Below are positions 21,038-32,154 of a stretch of 33,552 bases of DNA, in pieces (within the stretch, counting starts at the first letter, position 1; the number at the start of each line of letters is the position of its first letter). The stretch spans positions 1 through 33,552 of IMG/VR virus record IMGVR_UViG_2585427747_000002. One strand, 5' to 3'. The position numbers and the translations under genes are program-made. Below the pieces are notes generated by a model that worked only from the letters and a program-made list of their open reading frames with translations, was not told the origin of the DNA and did not search any database. Source of the DNA: a virus. Its lineage: Duplodnaviria; Heunggongvirae; Uroviricota; Caudoviricetes.

Positions 21038-21532
21038 TCATTTCCAATTGCAAGACTGTGAAATTTTTTCCACAACCTTATCAATCTCAGACAAGTCAAA
21101 CTCAACTACTTGCATAGTTGATCCATAAGGTTCAAACCCAAAAATAGCTTTTTTATGCTTAGCCAAGGTCTTTATAAATTGTATTGGTTGTGGAGCAAAT
21201 GCAGAATCACCGCCTTCCCCACCTCCCCAAACACTCTTGACCGGCTTTCCGCCATCTAACCGCACTGTAATTCTTGGGTTGTCCGAACCCATATAATCAT
21301 TGAATGATAAATAGGCATCTGTTTTGTTATCACTACAACGCAACACCAGTGAAGTTGCACGATCAGTACCTGCTTTGTTATATGAATCTGGTGATAAATT
21401 AAGAGCCACAAAGTCAGTCTGGTCAGTCATTTTATTCATCTCAGACTTTGTTATCCACGGCCCTAACTTCTCTACACCAGCATTTGCTGTAAACGAGGCA
21501 CTTATGACAAAGGCTAAAATAAATTTTCTCAT
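21038..21532 (-). CDS. Hypothetical secreted protein (164 aa) with Sec-type signal peptide, AT-rich cargo
   Basis: N-terminus MRKFILAFVISASFTANA|GVEK (signal-peptide-like, no lipobox Cys); AAGGAG SD 8 nt upstream; no family recognised. Confidence 0.6.
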   Translation of the reverse strand: MRKFILAFVISASFTANAGVEKLGPWITKSEMNKMTDQTDFVALNLSPDSYNKAGTDRATSLVLRCSDNKTDAYLSFNDYMGSDNPRITVRLDGGKPVKSVWGGGEGGDSAFAPQPIQFIKTLAKHKKAIFGFEPYGSTMQVVEFDLSEIDKVVEKISQSCNWK

Positions 21533-24506: not shown

Positions 24507-25196
24507 ATGAAAACAACACTCTCAGAAAGACTTAAAGAAGCCAGATTAGCGCGAGGCCTTACACAAAAGGCGCTTGGGGATTTGGTCGGGGTTAGCCAAG
24601 CTGCTATTCAGAAAATCGAAACAGGGAAAGCTAATCAAACAACTAAAATCGTGGAGATCGCGAACGCTTTGGGTGTGCGCGCAGAATGGTTATCTTCTGG
24701 CGTTGGAAATATGTCAGACAGTACAGTGCAACCAATACAACCAACTGTCAGCCATTCCAAATACTTTAAGATTGACGTTCTTGATATAGAAGTGAGTGCC
24801 GGGCCGGGTGTCATCAACCGTGAGTTTGTAGAAGTTCTACGTTCGGTTGAGTATTCGTTTGACGATGCTCGTCACATGTTCGATGGCAGGAAGGCGGAAA
24901 ATATCCGCATCATTAACGTACGCGGTGACAGCATGTCAGGAACGATTGAACCTGGTGATCTGCTGTTCGTTGATATCACGGTTAAATCTTTCGACGGTGA
25001 TGGTATCTATGCGTTTCTGTACGACGACACAGCCCATGTAAAGCGCCTGCAAATGATGAAGGATAAGCTGCTGGTTATCTCTGATAACAAGAGCTACTCA
25101 CCGTGGGACCCGATCGAGAAAGACGAGATGAACCGGGTGTTCATCTTCGGTAAGGTTATTGGGAGCATGCCCCAGACGTACAGGAAACATGGATAA
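24507..25196 (+). CDS. cI: CI repressor (N-terminal HTH, C-terminal LexA/S24-type autocleavage domain)
   Basis: 229 aa, MKTTLSERLKEARLARGLTQKALGDLVGVSQAAIQKIETGK... and C-terminal ...NVRGDSMSGTIEPGDLLFVD...AHVKRLQ... (Ser/Lys dyad context); not lambda immunity specificity. Confidence 0.9.
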   Translation: MKTTLSERLKEARLARGLTQKALGDLVGVSQAAIQKIETGKANQTTKIVEIANALGVRAEWLSSGVGNMSDSTVQPIQPTVSHSKYFKIDVLDIEVSAGPGVINREFVEVLRSVEYSFDDARHMFDGRKAENIRIINVRGDSMSGTIEPGDLLFVDITVKSFDGDGIYAFLYDDTAHVKRLQMMKDKLLVISDNKSYSPWDPIEKDEMNRVFIFGKVIGSMPQTYRKHG

Positions 25197-25262: not shown

Positions 25263-26126
25263 ATGGATTGTGACGCTTTACAGGATATAAAAATCTCTCT
25301 TAGGTATGACGGAAAAGATGCTTTAAATCATGAAATAGATTTGAACTGCCTAGGAGAATCCCTAAAGGGTTTTTCTAAAGTTCTCTCAACAGCAGCTTCT
25401 TTCTCTGTTACACAAAAATATAGTAAATACATTAATTATCAGGAAGTTAAGGTTTACGCACGCGAAGCAAAAGCTAACTGCTTTACTCTTGAAGCAGTTC
25501 TTAACTTCGCCACTCAGAACCAGTTGTTCTCGGGGATCGCCGCAACTATACTTGGCGCAATACTACAATATATTTTTGCGAGAAATTCTAACAAGAAAGA
25601 TGAAATGAAAGCTTTGCAGCAGTCACTTGAAAAGGCCATAGAGGCACTAGGAAACAAGGATGCTGGAACCATTGATAAGTTGATCTCTTTGATTGACCGA
25701 ATGGCTGTAGAGCTTCGCCCCTCTGTAAGGCAGGCAGTATCACCTATTGGTAATACTTGCGATCAGATAAGTGTTGCAACAAATGTTGACGGCTGCCTTC
25801 TAAAAGTTAACGAGAGAGATAAAGCTGAAATTGATAGGCTTGATGATGATGAAGTTCTCGGTCTTCGTGAGTATCGTGCTTTTCTTACAGAATTTGATGC
25901 ACAAAATATGACAGCTAAAATAATTTTAGATGGTGATGACTCAAAAAAGAGAATCACTGCTGAAATTAGCGATCCAGCTGCAGGAAAGAAGAATAACCCG
26001 TATATTAGAGCTCTTAGTGCATATATATCAACCAAAGGTGATCCATCTGCAGTATTCACTATAACCGCAAAGGCTACTGTTAAAAAAGGCCAGATAAACA
26101 GGTTATTTATTGTAGATGCGAAATGA
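25263..26126 (+). CDS. Hypothetical protein (287 aa), AT-rich, in the rexAB position downstream of cI
   Basis: [31 protein letters not shown]... with one central hydrophobic segment ([19 protein letters not shown]); gagag SD; followed by an intrinsic terminator; no family recognised. Confidence 0.7.
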
Positions 26127-26129
26127 TTT

Positions 26130-26157
26130 CCCCGGCCGTCGTGCCGGGTTTTCTTTT
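26130..26157 (+). terminator. Intrinsic terminator after the cI-operon cargo gene
   Basis: CCCGGC-cgtcgt-GCCGGG followed by TTTTCTTTT, 4 nt after the stop codon. Confidence 0.8.
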
Positions 26158-27187: not shown

Positions 27188-27973
27188 ATGAGTACTGCAC
27201 TCGCAACGCTGGCTGGGAAGCTGGCTGAACGTGTCGGCATGGATTCTGTCGACCCACAAGAACTGATCACCACTCTTCGTCAGACGGCATTTAAAGGTGA
27301 TGCCAGCGATGCGCAGTTCATCGCATTGTTGATCGTCGCCAACCAGTACGGCCTTAATCCGTGGACGAAAGAAATTTACGCCTTCCCTGATAAGCAGAAC
27401 GGCATCGTTCCGGTGGTGGGCGTTGATGGCTGGTCCCGCATCATCAATGAAAACCAGCAGTTTGATGGCATGGACTTTGAGCAGGACAATGAATCATGTA
27501 CATGCCGGATTTACCGCAAGGACCGTAATCATCCGATCTGCGTTACCGAATGGATGGATGAATGCCGCCGCGAACCATTCAAAACCCGCGAAGGCAGAGA
27601 AATCACCGGACCGTGGCAGTCGCATCCCAAACGAATGTTACGGCATAAAGCCATGATTCAGTGTGCCCGTCTGGCCTTCGGATTTGCTGGTATCTATGAC
27701 AAGGATGAAGCTGAGCGCATTGTCGAAAATACTGCATACACTGCGGAACGTCAGCCGGAACGCGACATCACTCCGGTTAACGATGAAACCATGCAGGAGA
27801 TTAACACTCTGCTGATCGCCCTGGATAAAACATGGGATGACGACTTATTGCCGCTCTGTTCCCAGATATTTCGCCGCGACATTCGCGCATCGTCAGAACT
27901 GACACAGGCCGAAGCAGTGAAAGCTCTTGGATTCCTGAAACAGAAAGCCACTGAGCAGAAGGTGGCAGCATGA
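27188..27973 (+). CDS. bet: Bet (Red-beta) single-strand annealing protein
   Basis: 261 aa, [66 protein letters not shown]..., matches lambda Bet. Confidence 0.96.
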
Positions 27974-28650
27974 CACCGGACATTATCCTGCAGCGTACCG
28001 GGATCGACGTGAGAGCTGTCGAACAGGGGGATGATGCGTGGCACAAATTACGGCTCGGCGTCATCACCGCTTCAGAAGTTCACAACGTGATAGCAAAGCC
28101 CCGCTCAGGAAAGAAGTGGCCTGACATGAAAATGTCCTACTTCCACACCCTGCTGGCTGAGGTTTGCACCGGTGTTGCTCCGGAAGTTAATGCTAAGGCG
28201 CTGGCCTGGGGAAAACAGTACGAGAACGACGCCAGAACCCTGTTTGAATTCACTTCCGGCGTGAATATTACTGAATCCCCGATCATCTATCGCGACGAAA
28301 GTATGCGCACCGCCTGCTCTCCCGATGGTTTATGCAGTGACGGCAACGGCCTTGAACTGAAATGCCCGTTTACCTCCCGGGATTTCATGAAATTCCGGCT
28401 CGGTGGTTTCGAGGCCATAAAATCGGCTTACATGGCCCAGGTGCAGTACAGCATGTGGGTGACGCGAAAAGATGCCTGGTACTTTGCCAACTATGACCCG
28501 CGCATGAAGCGTGAAGGCCTGCATTATGTCGTGATTGAGCGGAATGAAAAGTACATGGCGAGTTTTGACGAGATGGTGCCGGAGTTCATCGAAAAAATGG
28601 ACGAGGCACTGGCTGAAATTGGTTTTGTATTTGGGGAGCAATGGCGATGA
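27970..28650 (+). CDS. exo: Exo (Red-alpha) 5'-3' exonuclease
   Basis: 226 aa, [65 protein letters not shown]..., matches lambda Exo. Confidence 0.96.
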
Positions 28651-28805
28651 CGCATCCTCACGATAATATCCGGGTAGGCGCGATCACTTTCGTCTACTCC
28701 GTTACAAAGCGAGGCTGGGTATTTCCCGGGCTTTCTGTTATCCGAAATCCGCTGAAAGCCCAGCGGCTGGCTGAGGAGATAAATAATAAACGGGAGGCGG
28801 TATGA
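28647..28805 (+). CDS. Small hypothetical protein (52 aa), translationally coupled between exo and the PAPS-reductase gene
   Basis: Sub-60-aa ORF missing from the track: [52 protein letters not shown]; ATGA overlaps at both ends. Confidence 0.45.
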
Positions 28806-30046
28806 ACGAGGCAGCAATAATTATTGTCCCAACAGACATCAGCAAGAAAATTCGCGAAATAGAAGAGTCCTACAACAGATATATAAATGAATTTCGCATC
28901 CCTAATGATCATAAGATAATCGTGAATTATTCAGCAGGAAAAGACAGCACTGCCACACTCGCAGTGGCGCACACATTATTCGGCAAACAGGTACATGCTG
29001 TTATGGCAGACACGGATAATGAGCATAATCTAACTGTCGAATTCGCCAGGAGCATTCATGAGCAGATCGGTTGTAGCCCTGTGCAGGTTGTGAAGCGGAT
29101 TTACACTGAAGAAGATTTTACCAAACGACGAATTTATCTGCAAAAAAACTGGTCTAAACGACAGATGATCCGCATGGGAGCATACCGTGGCATAGTCATG
29201 CCTTCCCTCGCACGTTCTGACACCAAATTCGGGCAAGCCTGGAAGCGCACAGCAGAACGCTGGGGAATTGAGTTCGAAACTGCTCTTGATGCTGCGCTTT
29301 CCGTTATGCACCCATCCGGTAATAGCTTTTTGGATTGCTCCCTTCTGCATGGCAAGTTCCCTATGCTGCGCGACCGATTCTGTACAGACGAACTGAAAAT
29401 TCAGATAGCTTTCGACGCAGCCATAAAGCCGCTCCTTGATGCTGGCGATGTTATCGTACAATGGTCTGGTGTTCGCGCGGATGAGTCCTCTAAGCGCGCT
29501 GGATATGAGAGGTTTTCCCGCGATATGCGCGACGCCGATTTTCTCTACAACTTCCTGCCGCTCCACAAATGGACGGCTGAGGACGTATTCGCAGTTCACA
29601 AATATTTCGGAATTAAGCCAAATCCACTTTATATGCAAGGTGCGTCTCGTGTTGGCTGCATGAATTGCGTGCTATGCAACAAAGAGGAAATTGCAGAGAC
29701 GGCTGCGCGCTGGCCAGAGCACATCAAAAAGCACAAACAATGGGAGTTGAAGGTACGCCTTGCTAGTAGATGGGTACACTGGATGAGCGTAGGAGAGATA
29801 AGCCAACGCTGGATGAAACAGTTCAATCTGCCACTTGGTCGAAATATTCAACTTTTTGGGCTAAAACCTGATGTGCAACACATCGACTGGTCAGGATTTT
29901 ATGGTCCTCGTGGAGATCTTAATTCTCCGGGTGTTTATGAAGTCGTAGAGTGGGCAAAAACAGGGCGCGGTGGCAAGGTCTACGATCTTGTAAAAGCAAG
30001 TCTCGATATAGAGGTTTGCTCTTCACGCTACGGTCTGTGCGAATAA
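28802..30046 (+). CDS. PAPS-reductase-family protein (PP-loop ATP pyrophosphatase fold; IbrA/DndC-like)
   Basis: 414 aa with PP-loop motif (…NYSAGKDSTATL… near residue 43); length and architecture resemble prophage IbrA as recalled. No ParB-like partner gene follows. Confidence 0.7.
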   Translation: MNEAAIIIVPTDISKKIREIEESYNRYINEFRIPNDHKIIVNYSAGKDSTATLAVAHTLFGKQVHAVMADTDNEHNLTVEFARSIHEQIGCSPVQVVKRIYTEEDFTKRRIYLQKNWSKRQMIRMGAYRGIVMPSLARSDTKFGQAWKRTAERWGIEFETALDAALSVMHPSGNSFLDCSLLHGKFPMLRDRFCTDELKIQIAFDAAIKPLLDAGDVIVQWSGVRADESSKRAGYERFSRDMRDADFLYNFLPLHKWTAEDVFAVHKYFGIKPNPLYMQGASRVGCMNCVLCNKEEIAETAARWPEHIKKHKQWELKVRLASRWVHWMSVGEISQRWMKQFNLPLGRNIQLFGLKPDVQHIDWSGFYGPRGDLNSPGVYEVVEWAKTGRGGKVYDLVKASLDIEVCSSRYGLCE

Positions 30047-30057
30047 TACTAAGTTAT

Positions 30058-30660
30058 TTACTCATTATTTTTTGATAATACAACTTTCTGCCAAGTTATC
30101 TGGTTACGTTGAAAACTATCTTTATTTATTGACGTAACTCGCAATGTTTTCAGACCTAACTGAGACGCTAACTCAAGAAGTTCCTCAGTATTAACAACGT
30201 TAATGTTTCTATCTGGTTCGGGAGGTCCCAAGCGCAATGTAATTATCATTCTCCCATTCAATGTTAAAAGATCAGTTAGCGTCTCTAGTGAGATTTTTTG
30301 CTCTTTTTTTGAAAGATGCATCCATACAGCACTGACTAAAATAAGGTCGAACTTTAGATTCATTGCTTTAACACTATGAAGAAAAGGCAATGAATCATCT
30401 AACCATATAATATGGTTAGATTTATAATATGAAGATGCCAAATTTCGCATCTTTTCACTTGGTTCAACAGCTATTACTTTATAACCTAATTCATCTAACG
30501 CAGCAGCATCACGGCCGGAACCTGAACCGACATCCAAAGAGACACCCTTAGATTGTAAAATAAACTCTTCAACATCCTGAAAGATAGAGTAAAAATCAAG
30601 TGATATATAATCGGCAAATAAGCGATCAGCATTATTGTCATAAAACTTCCACGAAGTCAC
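30058..30660 (-). CDS. Class I SAM-dependent methyltransferase (200 aa; small-molecule / TehB-like type), AT-rich cargo
   Basis: Motif I LDVGSGSGRDAAALDELGYKVIAVEPS and post-I acidic residue, motif DLILVSAVWMHL; overlaps the upstream membrane-protein gene by 4 nt (operon). Confidence 0.7.
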   Translation of the reverse strand: MTSWKFYDNNADRLFADYISLDFYSIFQDVEEFILQSKGVSLDVGSGSGRDAAALDELGYKVIAVEPSEKMRNLASSYYKSNHIIWLDDSLPFLHSVKAMNLKFDLILVSAVWMHLSKKEQKISLETLTDLLTLNGRMIITLRLGPPEPDRNINVVNTEELLELASQLGLKTLRVTSINKDSFQRNQITWQKVVLSKNNE

Positions 30661-31241
30661 TTTGATAATCCTGATTTTGCTTCGATAAATAATCCTGACT
30701 CAATATTTTTAATTGTTGCTTTGTATGTATTATGTGAAATGTCTTTTGAAAACAAGTTTGGATGATATACCCCAGCAATATTAACAAAGAAGCAAACAAT
30801 AAGCATTACTGCCCAGCACGACACTACTATGTAACCAGTTTCCTTATTATCATAGCTAGAGGGCAATTTAAATCCAGCGTCTCTAGTAATTTCATTTAAA
30901 ATATAGTTTTTTGAAGGGTCTTCAATGTTTTTTTGTAGTGCTATTTTCGAACCAATTAAAGACCTTAAGCGATAAAGTGTAATCATTGTTGTGAAATCAA
31001 ACAATGCTAACACTGCAAAGATAATCCATAGGGAACTTTCATTTGCCAGTGTTGTTGCATACCACAACCCACCATTGACAGCAATTACGAAACTAGGGAT
31101 TTGCCACATGAGCTGATTTAAAGCCCGCATGTGTTGTCCTGCTTCAAGATAAGTAATCTCCTGCAGCTTCTGATACCAACGGATTGCCTCAATTTTTAGA
31201 TTTTCGTTAATCTGTTGCTGTTGCTGTTGCTGATTTACCAT
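30657..31241 (-). CDS. Hypothetical membrane protein (194 aa, about 3 TM segments, N-terminal poly-Gln), AT-rich cargo
   Basis: Start MVNQQQQQQQINENLK... at 31241 (track ORF has an 18-codon upstream extension); hydrophobic segments IPSFVIAVNGGLWYATTL, LWIIFAVLALFDFTTMITL, YIVVSCWAVMLIVCFFVNIAGVY. Confidence 0.6.
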   Translation of the reverse strand: MVNQQQQQQQINENLKIEAIRWYQKLQEITYLEAGQHMRALNQLMWQIPSFVIAVNGGLWYATTLANESSLWIIFAVLALFDFTTMITLYRLRSLIGSKIALQKNIEDPSKNYILNEITRDAGFKLPSSYDNKETGYIVVSCWAVMLIVCFFVNIAGVYHPNLFSKDISHNTYKATIKNIESGLFIEAKSGLSK

Positions 31242-31507
31242 GTAATCCCTGCTCAACGAACTGAAACTTTTAATGATGCTATCACAACTTATCAAGAAGA
31301 TGAATTTCGTTATTTAAATTTAATATATCGGAGGCTTTTATCAGAACTTATACATAATACAAGCCCGAAGGCTGTCACCAGACAGGAGCATCAATAACAT
31401 TTGCCGTAGCGTACTGAAGAAGCACCGCGAAACGGTAACGCTGAGGGATTCACACCGACTCATTTAAGCCTGGCGATCGGCATGTTAAACGGCATCTTTA
31501 AGGAGCG

Positions 31508-31603
31508 ATGAACATGAAAAGCAAAATCATCAGGGAGCTACAGGCTCCTTTTTTATTATTCGCATTCACCCTCAAGCGTATTAACCAACAATTCAGAGAT
31601 TAA
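31508..31603 (+). CDS. Candidate small ORF (31 aa) with strong RBS upstream of the traR-like gene
   Basis: TAAGGAG 5 nt before ATG; MNMKSKIIRELQAPFLLFAFTLKRINQQFRD; contains the terminator-like hairpin at 31533-31556; stop is 6 nt before the next start codon. Confidence 0.3.
   Translation: MNMKSKIIRELQAPFLLFAFTLKRINQQFRD
31533..31556 (+). terminator. Terminator-like hairpin with T-tract upstream of the traR-like gene
   Basis: GGAGC-tacag-GCTCC followed by TTTTTTATT on the plus strand. Confidence 0.5.
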
Positions 31604-31609
31604 TGGAAG

Positions 31610-31828
31610 ATGGCAGACATCATTGATTCAGCATCAGAAATCGAAGAATTACAGCGCAATACAGCAATAAAAATGCGTCGTCTGAACCACCAGGCTATAT
31701 CTGCCACTCATTGTTGTGAGTGTGGCGATCCGATAGATGAACGAAGACGCCTGGCCGTTCAGGGTTGTCGGACTTGTGCAAGTTGCCAGGAGGAGATCGA
31801 ACTTAAGAACAAACAATGGGGACTGTGA
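31610..31828 (+). CDS. TraR/DksA-family C4 zinc-finger protein (RNA-polymerase-binding type)
   Basis: 72 aa with CxxC-N17-CxxC (CECGDPIDERRRLAVQGCRTCASC); same family as recalled lambda Orf73 / TraR. Confidence 0.8.
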   Translation: MADIIDSASEIEELQRNTAIKMRRLNHQAISATHCCECGDPIDERRRLAVQGCRTCASCQEEIELKNKQWGL

Positions 31829-31875: not shown

Positions 31876-32154
31876 ATGTTCAGAATCATTTTTCCTAACA
31901 CCTGGTACGTCGACCACCACGGCACTCCCTGCAAAATCCTGCGTTCTACCCACAACAAAGTTCACTACATCCGAAAAGGCAGAACATGTATCGCCAGCAT
32001 GTTCCGCTTTAATCATGACTTTGAACCTGTGAATAAAGCTGATGCAGATCGGATAGCAGAAGAGCTCGAAACGGCAGAACACATTAAGAAGTTACGTGAC
32101 ATGCGTTCAAAAAGCAGAGGTAACCATGGAATCATACAGCCTCACACTCGATGA
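31876..32154 (+). CDS. Hypothetical protein (92 aa) upstream of xis/int
   Basis: ORF with GAGGTG SD 7 nt upstream; no family recognised. Confidence 0.5.
   Translation: MFRIIFPNTWYVDHHGTPCKILRSTHNKVHYIRKGRTCIASMFRFNHDFEPVNKADADRIAEELETAEHIKKLRDMRSKSRGNHGIIQPHTR

Follow-up and report, generated by a model that had tools for sequence, protein, structure and literature searches.

Several described systems place sulfur in the DNA backbone as phosphorothioate (PT), a product made by SspD, DndC and BrxP. SspD belongs to the SspABCD system, which modifies single strands to give CpsCA, DndC is the Fe-S ATP pyrophosphatase of the double-strand system DndABCDE, and BrxP comes from BREX type 4. Partner proteins of the Dnd and Ssp systems have been reported as required (PMC8569181). 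For the TdpABC system, PMC12914056, citing An et al. 2025, reports that tdpC alone is enough for PT synthesis and that TdpC acts through an adenylated DNA intermediate.

The locus compared here with these systems lies in IMG/VR record IMGVR_UViG_2585427747_000002, a stretch of 33,552 nucleotides that was analysed as a whole and is called the window below. It corresponds to a lambdoid prophage inserted at the argU/intD (DLP12) site, and E. coli SE11 shares 99.9% identity with it across the region. It carries an early gene for a 414-residue protein with the phosphoadenosine phosphosulfate (PAPS) reductase fold, followed by a convergent pair of genes that encode a methyltransferase and a membrane protein. 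The explanation preferred here, to which a probability of about 45% is given, is that the 414-residue protein is a solitary iron-sulfur (Fe-S), ATP-dependent DNA sulfurtransferase that is tied functionally to the pair.

Family assignment and conserved motifs of the phage enzyme

The open reading frame (ORF) of 414 codons is a real gene and not a chance ORF, as it has 484 homologues, with orthologues at E ~1e-250. Its product matches PF01507 (PAPS_reduct) with an E-value of 7e-21, above the gathering score, and residues 39-290 fall on profile positions 2-173 of 175. Because this part of the protein is spread over only 172 profile positions, an insertion of about 80 residues is implied. The sequence-only reading had placed the protein in the PAPS-reductase/DndC superfamily with an intact PP-loop, and both the domain search and a proper alignment bear this out. 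Across 38 sequences, reaching down to about 35% identity, S44, G46, K47, D48 and S49 of the PP-loop are invariant. The same alignment shows further conservation at A69-D-T..E74-H, G173-N-x-F-L-D, W221-x-G-x-R-x-x-E-S, N274-P-L-Y..R283-V-G-C286-x-x-C289 and W384..T387..G390-G..D395; C406 and N174 are conserved in at least 90% of the sequences, N174 not being strictly invariant.

The closest described relatives are found among PT enzymes. Profile-profile comparison with the SspD and DndC sequences recovered in this analysis (hhalign) gave a probability of 99.4 and an E-value of 1.6e-21 for SspD, and 98.7 and 4e-16 for DndC. PADLOC ranks the families in the same order, with SspD at 5.7e-19, BrxP at 3.9e-16 (a partial match only) and DndC at 6e-9. 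The cysteine motifs fall in register: RRWCTxxLK and GCxxC of SspD align with RFC194TDELK and GCxxC of the phage protein, as do RWCTxxxK and GCxxC of DndC. SspD also has a cysteine pair (CxxC) at its extreme C-terminus, and the 414-residue protein ends in CxxxxxxC-E. These motif alignments place the protein in the sulfur-inserting SspD/DndC branch, of which it is a divergent and solitary member, and by its sequence it is very likely an active enzyme of that kind.

The AlphaFold2 model is confident in the core (predicted local distance difference test, pLDDT, 81.7), and residues 390-414, with pLDDT <50, are disordered; they include the conserved C-terminal cysteines. In a profile search of solved structures, C286 and C289 align with IGC228EPC231 of the Pseudomonas aeruginosa APS (adenosine phosphosulfate) reductase 2goy, whose C228 and C231 are two of its Fe-S ligands. 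A structure search of BFVD returned only other phage proteins named 'PAPS reductase'.

That name is the usual one for the family. The protein belongs to PHROG 424, 'phosphoadenosine phosphosulfate reductase' (E 7e-66), the PGAP annotation uses the same kind of name, and the best matches among solved structures are APS/PAPS reductases. All of this would suit an auxiliary metabolic gene, namely a CysH-type PAPS/APS reductase by which sulfate assimilation of the host would be raised during infection, yet such an identity is extremely unlikely. The CysH/APS-reductase NCBIfam models cover only the C-terminal half of the protein and score far below their cut-offs (NF002537, 50 vs 154 bits; TIGR02055, 47 vs 235; TIGR00434, 34 vs 165; TIGR02057, 24 vs 254). 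The C-terminus reads SRYGLCE, and the catalytic motif ECGLH of CysH is not present. Compared with the CysH structures 2goy, 6vpu and 4bwv, the phage enzyme instead has an ATP-type PP-loop, SxGKDS, at a position where Vibrio CysH 6vpu reads SSSFG, and it stands in a phage recombination/replication context. The homologue contexts examined are likewise those of replication, recombination and DNA methylation, with no cys genes.

A resemblance to IbrA, proposed in the sequence-only reading, has not survived. IbrA carries a C-terminal DUF3440 domain (PF11922) after its PAPS_reduct domain. DUF3440 gave no match in the 414-residue protein at E <= 0.1 and was not found among about 170 listed homologues with precomputed Pfam assignments. 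The same reading had remarked on the lack of a ParB-like partner, and this is upheld: no ParB-like gene was found in the PGAP annotation of the SE11 prophage, in the unassigned early and nin-region ORFs of the window (Pfam scans), in six homologue contexts, or among the neighbour families seen in at least two of 35 homologue groups. What is shared with IbrA is the superfamily; the protein lacks DUF3440 and a ParB-like IbrB, and an identity with IbrA is rejected. An IbrA-like expression co-activator whose IbrB was lost or is dispensable could draw on this common superfamily and on one database annotation (OP434518, below). The missing domain and neighbour, together with strictly conserved catalytic motifs, leave it very improbable.

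The family is large, with 1494 clusters at 50% identity and E <= 1e-3. Its members typically have 310-380 residues, so that the 414-residue protein is a long form; this form occurs in prophages of Enterobacterales, Aeromonas, Shewanella and Oceanisphaera, mainly in the first two. Relatives include orf84 (CP84) of coliphage 186, gp57 of Burkholderia phage phiE125 and proteins of several P2-like phages. Carriage in E. coli is low: of 5426 complete genomes 29 have the gene, and phi458 is the one isolated phage with it. The phi458 record (OP434518, locus L001, 6203-7447) gives the identical gene the label 'putative transcriptional regulator', which has probably been carried over from IbrA, and leaves the small ORF that precedes it unannotated.

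In the window, the gene is chained to exo through that small ORF of 52 codons, as had been read from the sequence earlier. Both ATGA overlaps are present, at 28647-28650 (exo stop/DUF1317 start) and at 28802-28805 (DUF1317 stop/start of the 414-codon ORF), and the small ORF has an alternative ATG at 28641. Given this chaining and the lambda architecture, early expression from pL is a fair inference, again in agreement with the earlier reading. The small ORF is a DUF1317 gene of the lambda orf60a type. It precedes the enzyme gene in several loci; as a specific partner it was rejected, since it only occupies the lambda orf60a position after exo and is missing from other loci in which the enzyme gene has the convergent pair.

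A convergent gene pair shared with Dnd and Ssp clusters

The stop codon of the methyltransferase gene lies 11 nt from that of the enzyme gene, in convergent orientation, and the stop of the membrane-protein gene overlaps the methyltransferase start. The methyltransferase is a class I S-adenosylmethionine (SAM)-dependent enzyme. It was considered as a DNA methyltransferase and rejected: a DPPY/NPPF motif is missing, and the solved structures closest to it are those of small-molecule methyltransferases. The membrane protein, which would reach 212 residues from a TTG at 31295, carries the signature YLEAGQH[MLI]R[AS]LNQ[LI][ML]WQ[IV]P and has no family in Pfam, PHROGs or PADLOC. One UniRef entry labels a homologue DUF202-like.

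The sequence-only reading regarded these genes as an unrelated convergent module. That description fails, since the pair forms a conserved cassette with the enzyme gene and the same pair occurs beside dndBCDE and sspBCD. The convergent triad is repeated in different phage backbones, with the following identities of enzyme, methyltransferase and membrane protein to the window proteins: 84/60/67% (L186), 84/58/57% (L189), 83/63/61% (L023), 77-78/62/55-57% (L031-33), 71/40/41% (L207), 69/45/47% (L051) and 68/45/38% (L210). At L194-196 the triad includes a 359-residue short-form enzyme. In most loci 11 nt separate the enzyme and methyltransferase stops, and in L051 the distance is 6 nt; taken from the ends of the BLAST alignments, the spacing of the two genes is 18-34 nt. 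The divergence of the three genes is correlated (Spearman 0.77-0.91, n=13), the points not being phylogenetically independent. All 20 E. coli genomes with the enzyme gene, among the matches listed, also have the methyltransferase. Taken by itself, the methyltransferase belongs to a broad chromosomal family, and 76 of 80 genome loci have it without the membrane protein and without a PAPS-family gene.

The pair adjoins DndB-C-D-E at L132 and SspB-C-D at L097 and L200. In a Moraxellaceae genome it follows directly after DndB-DndC-DndD-DndE (PADLOC E 1e-167, 1e-221, 1e-213 and 5e-19), in Methylotenera and Chitinimonas the pair and SspB-SspC-SspD are divergently oriented, and in Luteimonas 4-8 kb separate the pair from dndB, dndA, dndE and dndD. 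A metagenome scan was seeded by the membrane-protein signature alone, and its loci together with those known before fall into 38 lineages at 80% identity. The nearest PT-type gene encodes a phage-type enzyme in nine of them, SspD in eight and DndC in four; four more have Dnd/Ssp partner genes only, the locus being cut off, and 13 have none. Eight of these 13 lie on contigs of at most 3.8 kb and were counted as uninformative, which leaves 30 informative lineages. The membrane protein stands near a PAPS-family or PT gene in 25 of the 30, against one of 76 methyltransferase-only controls (Fisher p = 3e-18; the control loci come from a different collection than the membrane-protein lineages, and the lineages are mutually related). 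No description of the pair was found in the literature searched, which included reappraisals of the Dnd and BREX machinery by comparative genomics.

Two further observations concern the distribution of the pair. The two-gene module stands beside dndBCDE/sspBCD clusters in many Proteobacteria (loci L097, L132, L199, L200 and L215-L245). A Klebsiella aerogenes prophage remnant (L201/L202, 9001-10271) has the pair in its nin region without a PAPS-family gene, next to NACHT, HATPase_c_3 and PD-(D/E)XK-like genes.

An alternative account of the cassette is an insertion accident, in which the pair is an independent lysogen-expressed moron or defence pair that landed in the same hot spot. The pair has a GC content of 32-36% against 46-53% for the enzyme gene, which is probably why it looked like an independent moron; it lies on the opposite strand, most orthologues of the enzyme lack it, and the Klebsiella remnant and four other lineages have it without a PAPS-family gene. 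The same junction geometry across phage backbones and the correlated divergence speak against such an accident, as does the attachment of the same pair to phage-type, DndC and SspD systems. An accident is accordingly regarded as rather unlikely. If it were true, the functional inference would be weaker, and the family assignment would be unaffected.

Sites that might govern the expression of the pair are included in Table 1. Counts of promoter- and terminator-like sites are no better than in shuffled sequence, so that nothing firm on expression follows from them.

Table 1. Positions of the genes, protein motifs and candidate sites in the window
Feature	Position	Strand	Basis or remark
Probable solitary SspD/DndC-like PP-loop ATP-pyrophosphatase gene, PAPS_reduct fold, 414 aa	28802..30046	+	ATG start, TAA stop
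PP-loop S44-A-G-K47-D48-S49, predicted ATP alpha/beta-phosphate binding	28931..28948	+	All but A45 invariant
C194-T-D-E-L-K199, predicted Fe-S ligand and substrate lysine	29381..29398	+	C194, E197, L198, K199 invariant
G285-C286-M-N-C289 (GCxxC), predicted Fe-S ligands	29654..29668	+	Invariant
C-terminal tail C406...S-x-Y-G-L-C413, candidate mobile persulfide/nucleophile Cys	30017..30040	+	S408, Y410, G411, L412, C413 invariant
exo, lambda exonuclease family, upstream in the chained pL-operon run	27970..28650	+	ORF; PGAP name at the SE11 locus
DUF1317 (lambda orf60a-like) ORF, 52 codons	28647..28805	+	PF07026 E 8e-34
Class I SAM-dependent methyltransferase, 200 aa, TehB/UbiE/GNMT-like	30058..30660	-	PADLOC mad2 E 7e-15
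Membrane protein, ~192 aa, at least 2-3 hydrophobic segments, signature YLEAGQHMRALNQLMWQIPS	30657..31235	-	ORF
Weak sigma-70-like site, candidate promoter of the pair	31555..31584	-	9/12 consensus match
Terminator-like hairpin and T-run just past the antisense pair	31532..31550	+	Consensus match only
164-aa nin-region ORF	21038-21532	-	Borderline type VI secretion VasI (PF11319), 26.7 vs 26.5-bit cut-off
cI-like repressor gene	24507-25196
287-aa DUF7946+DUF7947 protein	25263-26126	+	E 4e-55, 1e-18
GC-rich terminator-like hairpin after the DUF7946+DUF7947 gene	26131-26148
TraR/DksA-type zinc-finger gene, intact	31610-31828	+
DUF4222 gene	31876-32154	+

The last rows of Table 1 list other features of the prophage. 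The DUF7946+DUF7947 gene directly follows the cI-like repressor gene, in the position of lambda rexAB, and its product is a probable moron expressed in the lysogen or a candidate for exclusion; at this position the SE11 prophage differs in gene content. The TraR/DksA-type gene, whose TraR-like copy in SE11 is annotated as frameshifted, stands with the DUF4222 gene between the antisense pair and xis/int.

Proposed function and its alternatives

The homologues examined all sit in early regions of temperate phages. The Klebsiella homologue follows lambda P in the nin region, that of Oceanisphaera comes behind an exonuclease and RecT, those of Microvirga and gut metagenome phages stand downstream of a VapE-type primase, and in phage 186 the homologue precedes gene A. 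In other phages the gene is thus adjacent to replication nickases or primases. Two homologues are fused to DNA-methyltransferase domains, one of the MT-A70 family (P0107, in an Aeromonas prophage, beside Nmad5 and DUF4406 genes) and one with an NPPF motif (P0125); in Agrobacterium phage Rivra the homologue is flanked by two methyltransferase genes. Neighbours were also scanned two genes to each side in 35 independent groups, with one locus per 90%-identity group and a simple ORF caller, for which reason the counts are approximate. This gave 12 matches to DNA-methyltransferase families (D12, C5, N6_N4, MT-A70 and Dam), and the gene A replication nickase is a neighbour in 8 of the 35 groups.

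Some loci have further genes at this position. In the Aeromonas veronii prophage (L004, 6357-10094), genes for a DUF4406 protein (nucleoside deoxyribosyltransferase-like), Nmad5 and a 232-residue protein precede the fusion, all overlapping, and these may form a larger nucleotide/DNA-modification operon. Directly downstream of the orthologue, a Salmonella diarizonae prophage (L008, 8331-9266) has a gene for a protein that combines dATP/dGTP pyrophosphohydrolase (PF04447) and DUF551, and Klebsiella loci L005-L007 (9344-10141) have a DUF551 protein gene.

Homology and context together point to DNA modification as the most likely function, as the sequence-only reading had suggested. DNA is the likelier substrate given the methyltransferase fusions and neighbours, the replication/recombination context and the partner pair held in common with PT clusters, and on these sequence-based grounds the enzyme probably acts on DNA. 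Thiolation of tRNA, from the host or the phage, of the kind carried out by TtuA, TtcA or NcsA, for example in tuning translation or in shielding tRNAs from anticodon nucleases, would agree with the structural similarity to TtuA. The profile match to TtuA reaches only E ~0.8 in a search of PDB, against 1e-21 for SspD and 4e-16 for DndC; the fusions and neighbours are DNA methyltransferases and replication/recombination genes, and the pair tracks DNA-PT clusters. An RNA substrate thus appears quite unlikely.

A comparably low probability is given to sulfur-free, ATP-dependent modification of a base or nucleotide by QueC-type or amidotransferase chemistry, the outcome of which would be a new hypermodified base or the destruction of a defence signalling nucleotide. 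Weak matches at the level of the PP-loop to QueC, NAD synthase and GMP synthase speak for such chemistry, as do the Aeromonas MT-A70 fusion beside Nmad5 and DUF4406 and the Salmonella dATP/dGTP pyrophosphohydrolase next door. The QueC-type matches cover only the N-terminal PP-loop region, however, and the four invariant cysteines with SspD/DndC-type motifs favour Fe-S and sulfur chemistry.

For the DNA sulfurtransferase preferred here, a mechanism can be outlined by homology to SspD, DndC, TtuA and APS reductase. ATP would be bound at the PP-loop and an oxygen of the nucleic-acid substrate adenylated. C194, C286 and C289 would hold an Fe-S cluster, and a persulfide on C413, carried on the disordered tail, would pass on sulfur whose donor is probably host IscS. 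The net outcome would be an exchange of oxygen for sulfur in DNA, most likely as a backbone phosphorothioate. This is the most likely product because SspD, DndC and BrxP make it; as a specific claim about the phage enzyme, it stays tentative, at somewhat less than an even chance. Early expression from pL, chained to exo, would bring the enzyme onto replicating or recombining phage DNA. The pair, being otherwise attached to dndBCDE/sspBCD, is probably a reader or regulator of the sulfur mark or needs it to function; speculatively, lysogens may produce it as an effector or sensor by which the mark is read, or it may control or require the writer. The enzyme may serve biologically in self-marking or against restriction, or it may be the writer half within a compact system of defence.

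Several points weigh against this explanation. The Fe-S cluster and the sulfur chemistry are predicted from motifs only. With the DndC model TIGR03183 the protein reaches 32 bits where the cut-off is 290, and the PADLOC DndC matches are partial. Neither DndA, DndD, DndE, SspB nor SspC was found in the phage loci (six annotated contexts and 35 neighbour sets), and it is partners of this kind that the Dnd and Ssp systems are reported to require. The record of phage 186 describes orf84 as of unknown function and not essential; it adds that translating through the end of orf84 appears required for translation of the A protein. As to the pair, its methyltransferase is of the small-molecule type and not a DNA methyltransferase, it is missing from about 22 of 27 enterobacterial orthologue groups, and five informative lineages have it without a nearby PT gene. 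It is also antisense to pL, so that co-expression with the enzyme is not obvious. Defence islands gather unrelated systems, and part of the Dnd/Ssp association could therefore be co-residence; nevertheless, co-residence alone hardly accounts for the closeness of one pair to three different PAPS-family writers.

'PAPS reductase' genes are among the commonest unexplained early genes of temperate phages and are routinely filed as auxiliary genes of sulfur metabolism. The family is known as an annotation; no functional studies of the solitary phage family or of the membrane-protein/methyltransferase pair were found in the literature searched. If the proposed function is true, backbone phosphorothioates would have viruses among their known writers, the Dnd and Ssp systems would gain a newly defined accessory module, and there would be an explanation for the way in which some phages might escape PT-sensing defences or turn them to use. 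Should the enzyme make no sulfur modification, a widespread mis-annotation would still be removed. The broadest version is doubtful: that temperate phages, including the relatives of 186 orf84, carry a single-enzyme DNA-sulfur writer, that the pair is a new module serving DndBCDE, SspBCD and phage writers alike, and that the cassette is a viral PT-based self/non-self system.

Comparison with known systems

Among the described enzymes, SspD differs from the phage protein in size and setting. It has about 275 residues against 414, and the phage protein has the insertion of about 80 residues relative to the Pfam profile, mostly around 118-160 in the family alignments, and an extra region at 325-390. 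SspD loci contain the SspB nickase (DUF4007), the SspC ATPase and SspA, none of which was found in the phage loci examined; the phage enzyme is the product of an early-operon gene. DndC has a C-terminal extension of about 200 residues and the partners DndD and DndE, none of which accompanies the 414-residue protein. As to BrxP, no BREX genes (DUF4007, BrxC, PglZ or BrxL) were found near the gene. The likeness to TdpC, which was compared by description, is conceptual only, in that one protein makes PT; Tdp is a defence system of thermophiles with TdpAB as restriction partners, and the phage enzyme is an early gene.

Within phages, orf84 of 186, gp57 of phiE125 and the other members of PHROG 424 belong to the same family, with 35% identity over residues 40-414. 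The 186 gene also has an early-operon position and is translationally coupled to a DNA-processing gene, gene A. Both orf84 and gp57 represent the short form of about 320 residues, against 414 here. Beyond the descriptions found for these systems, the present comparison adds the SspD/DndC-like assignment of the solitary phage enzyme and a conserved cassette whose pair also accompanies Dnd and Ssp clusters.

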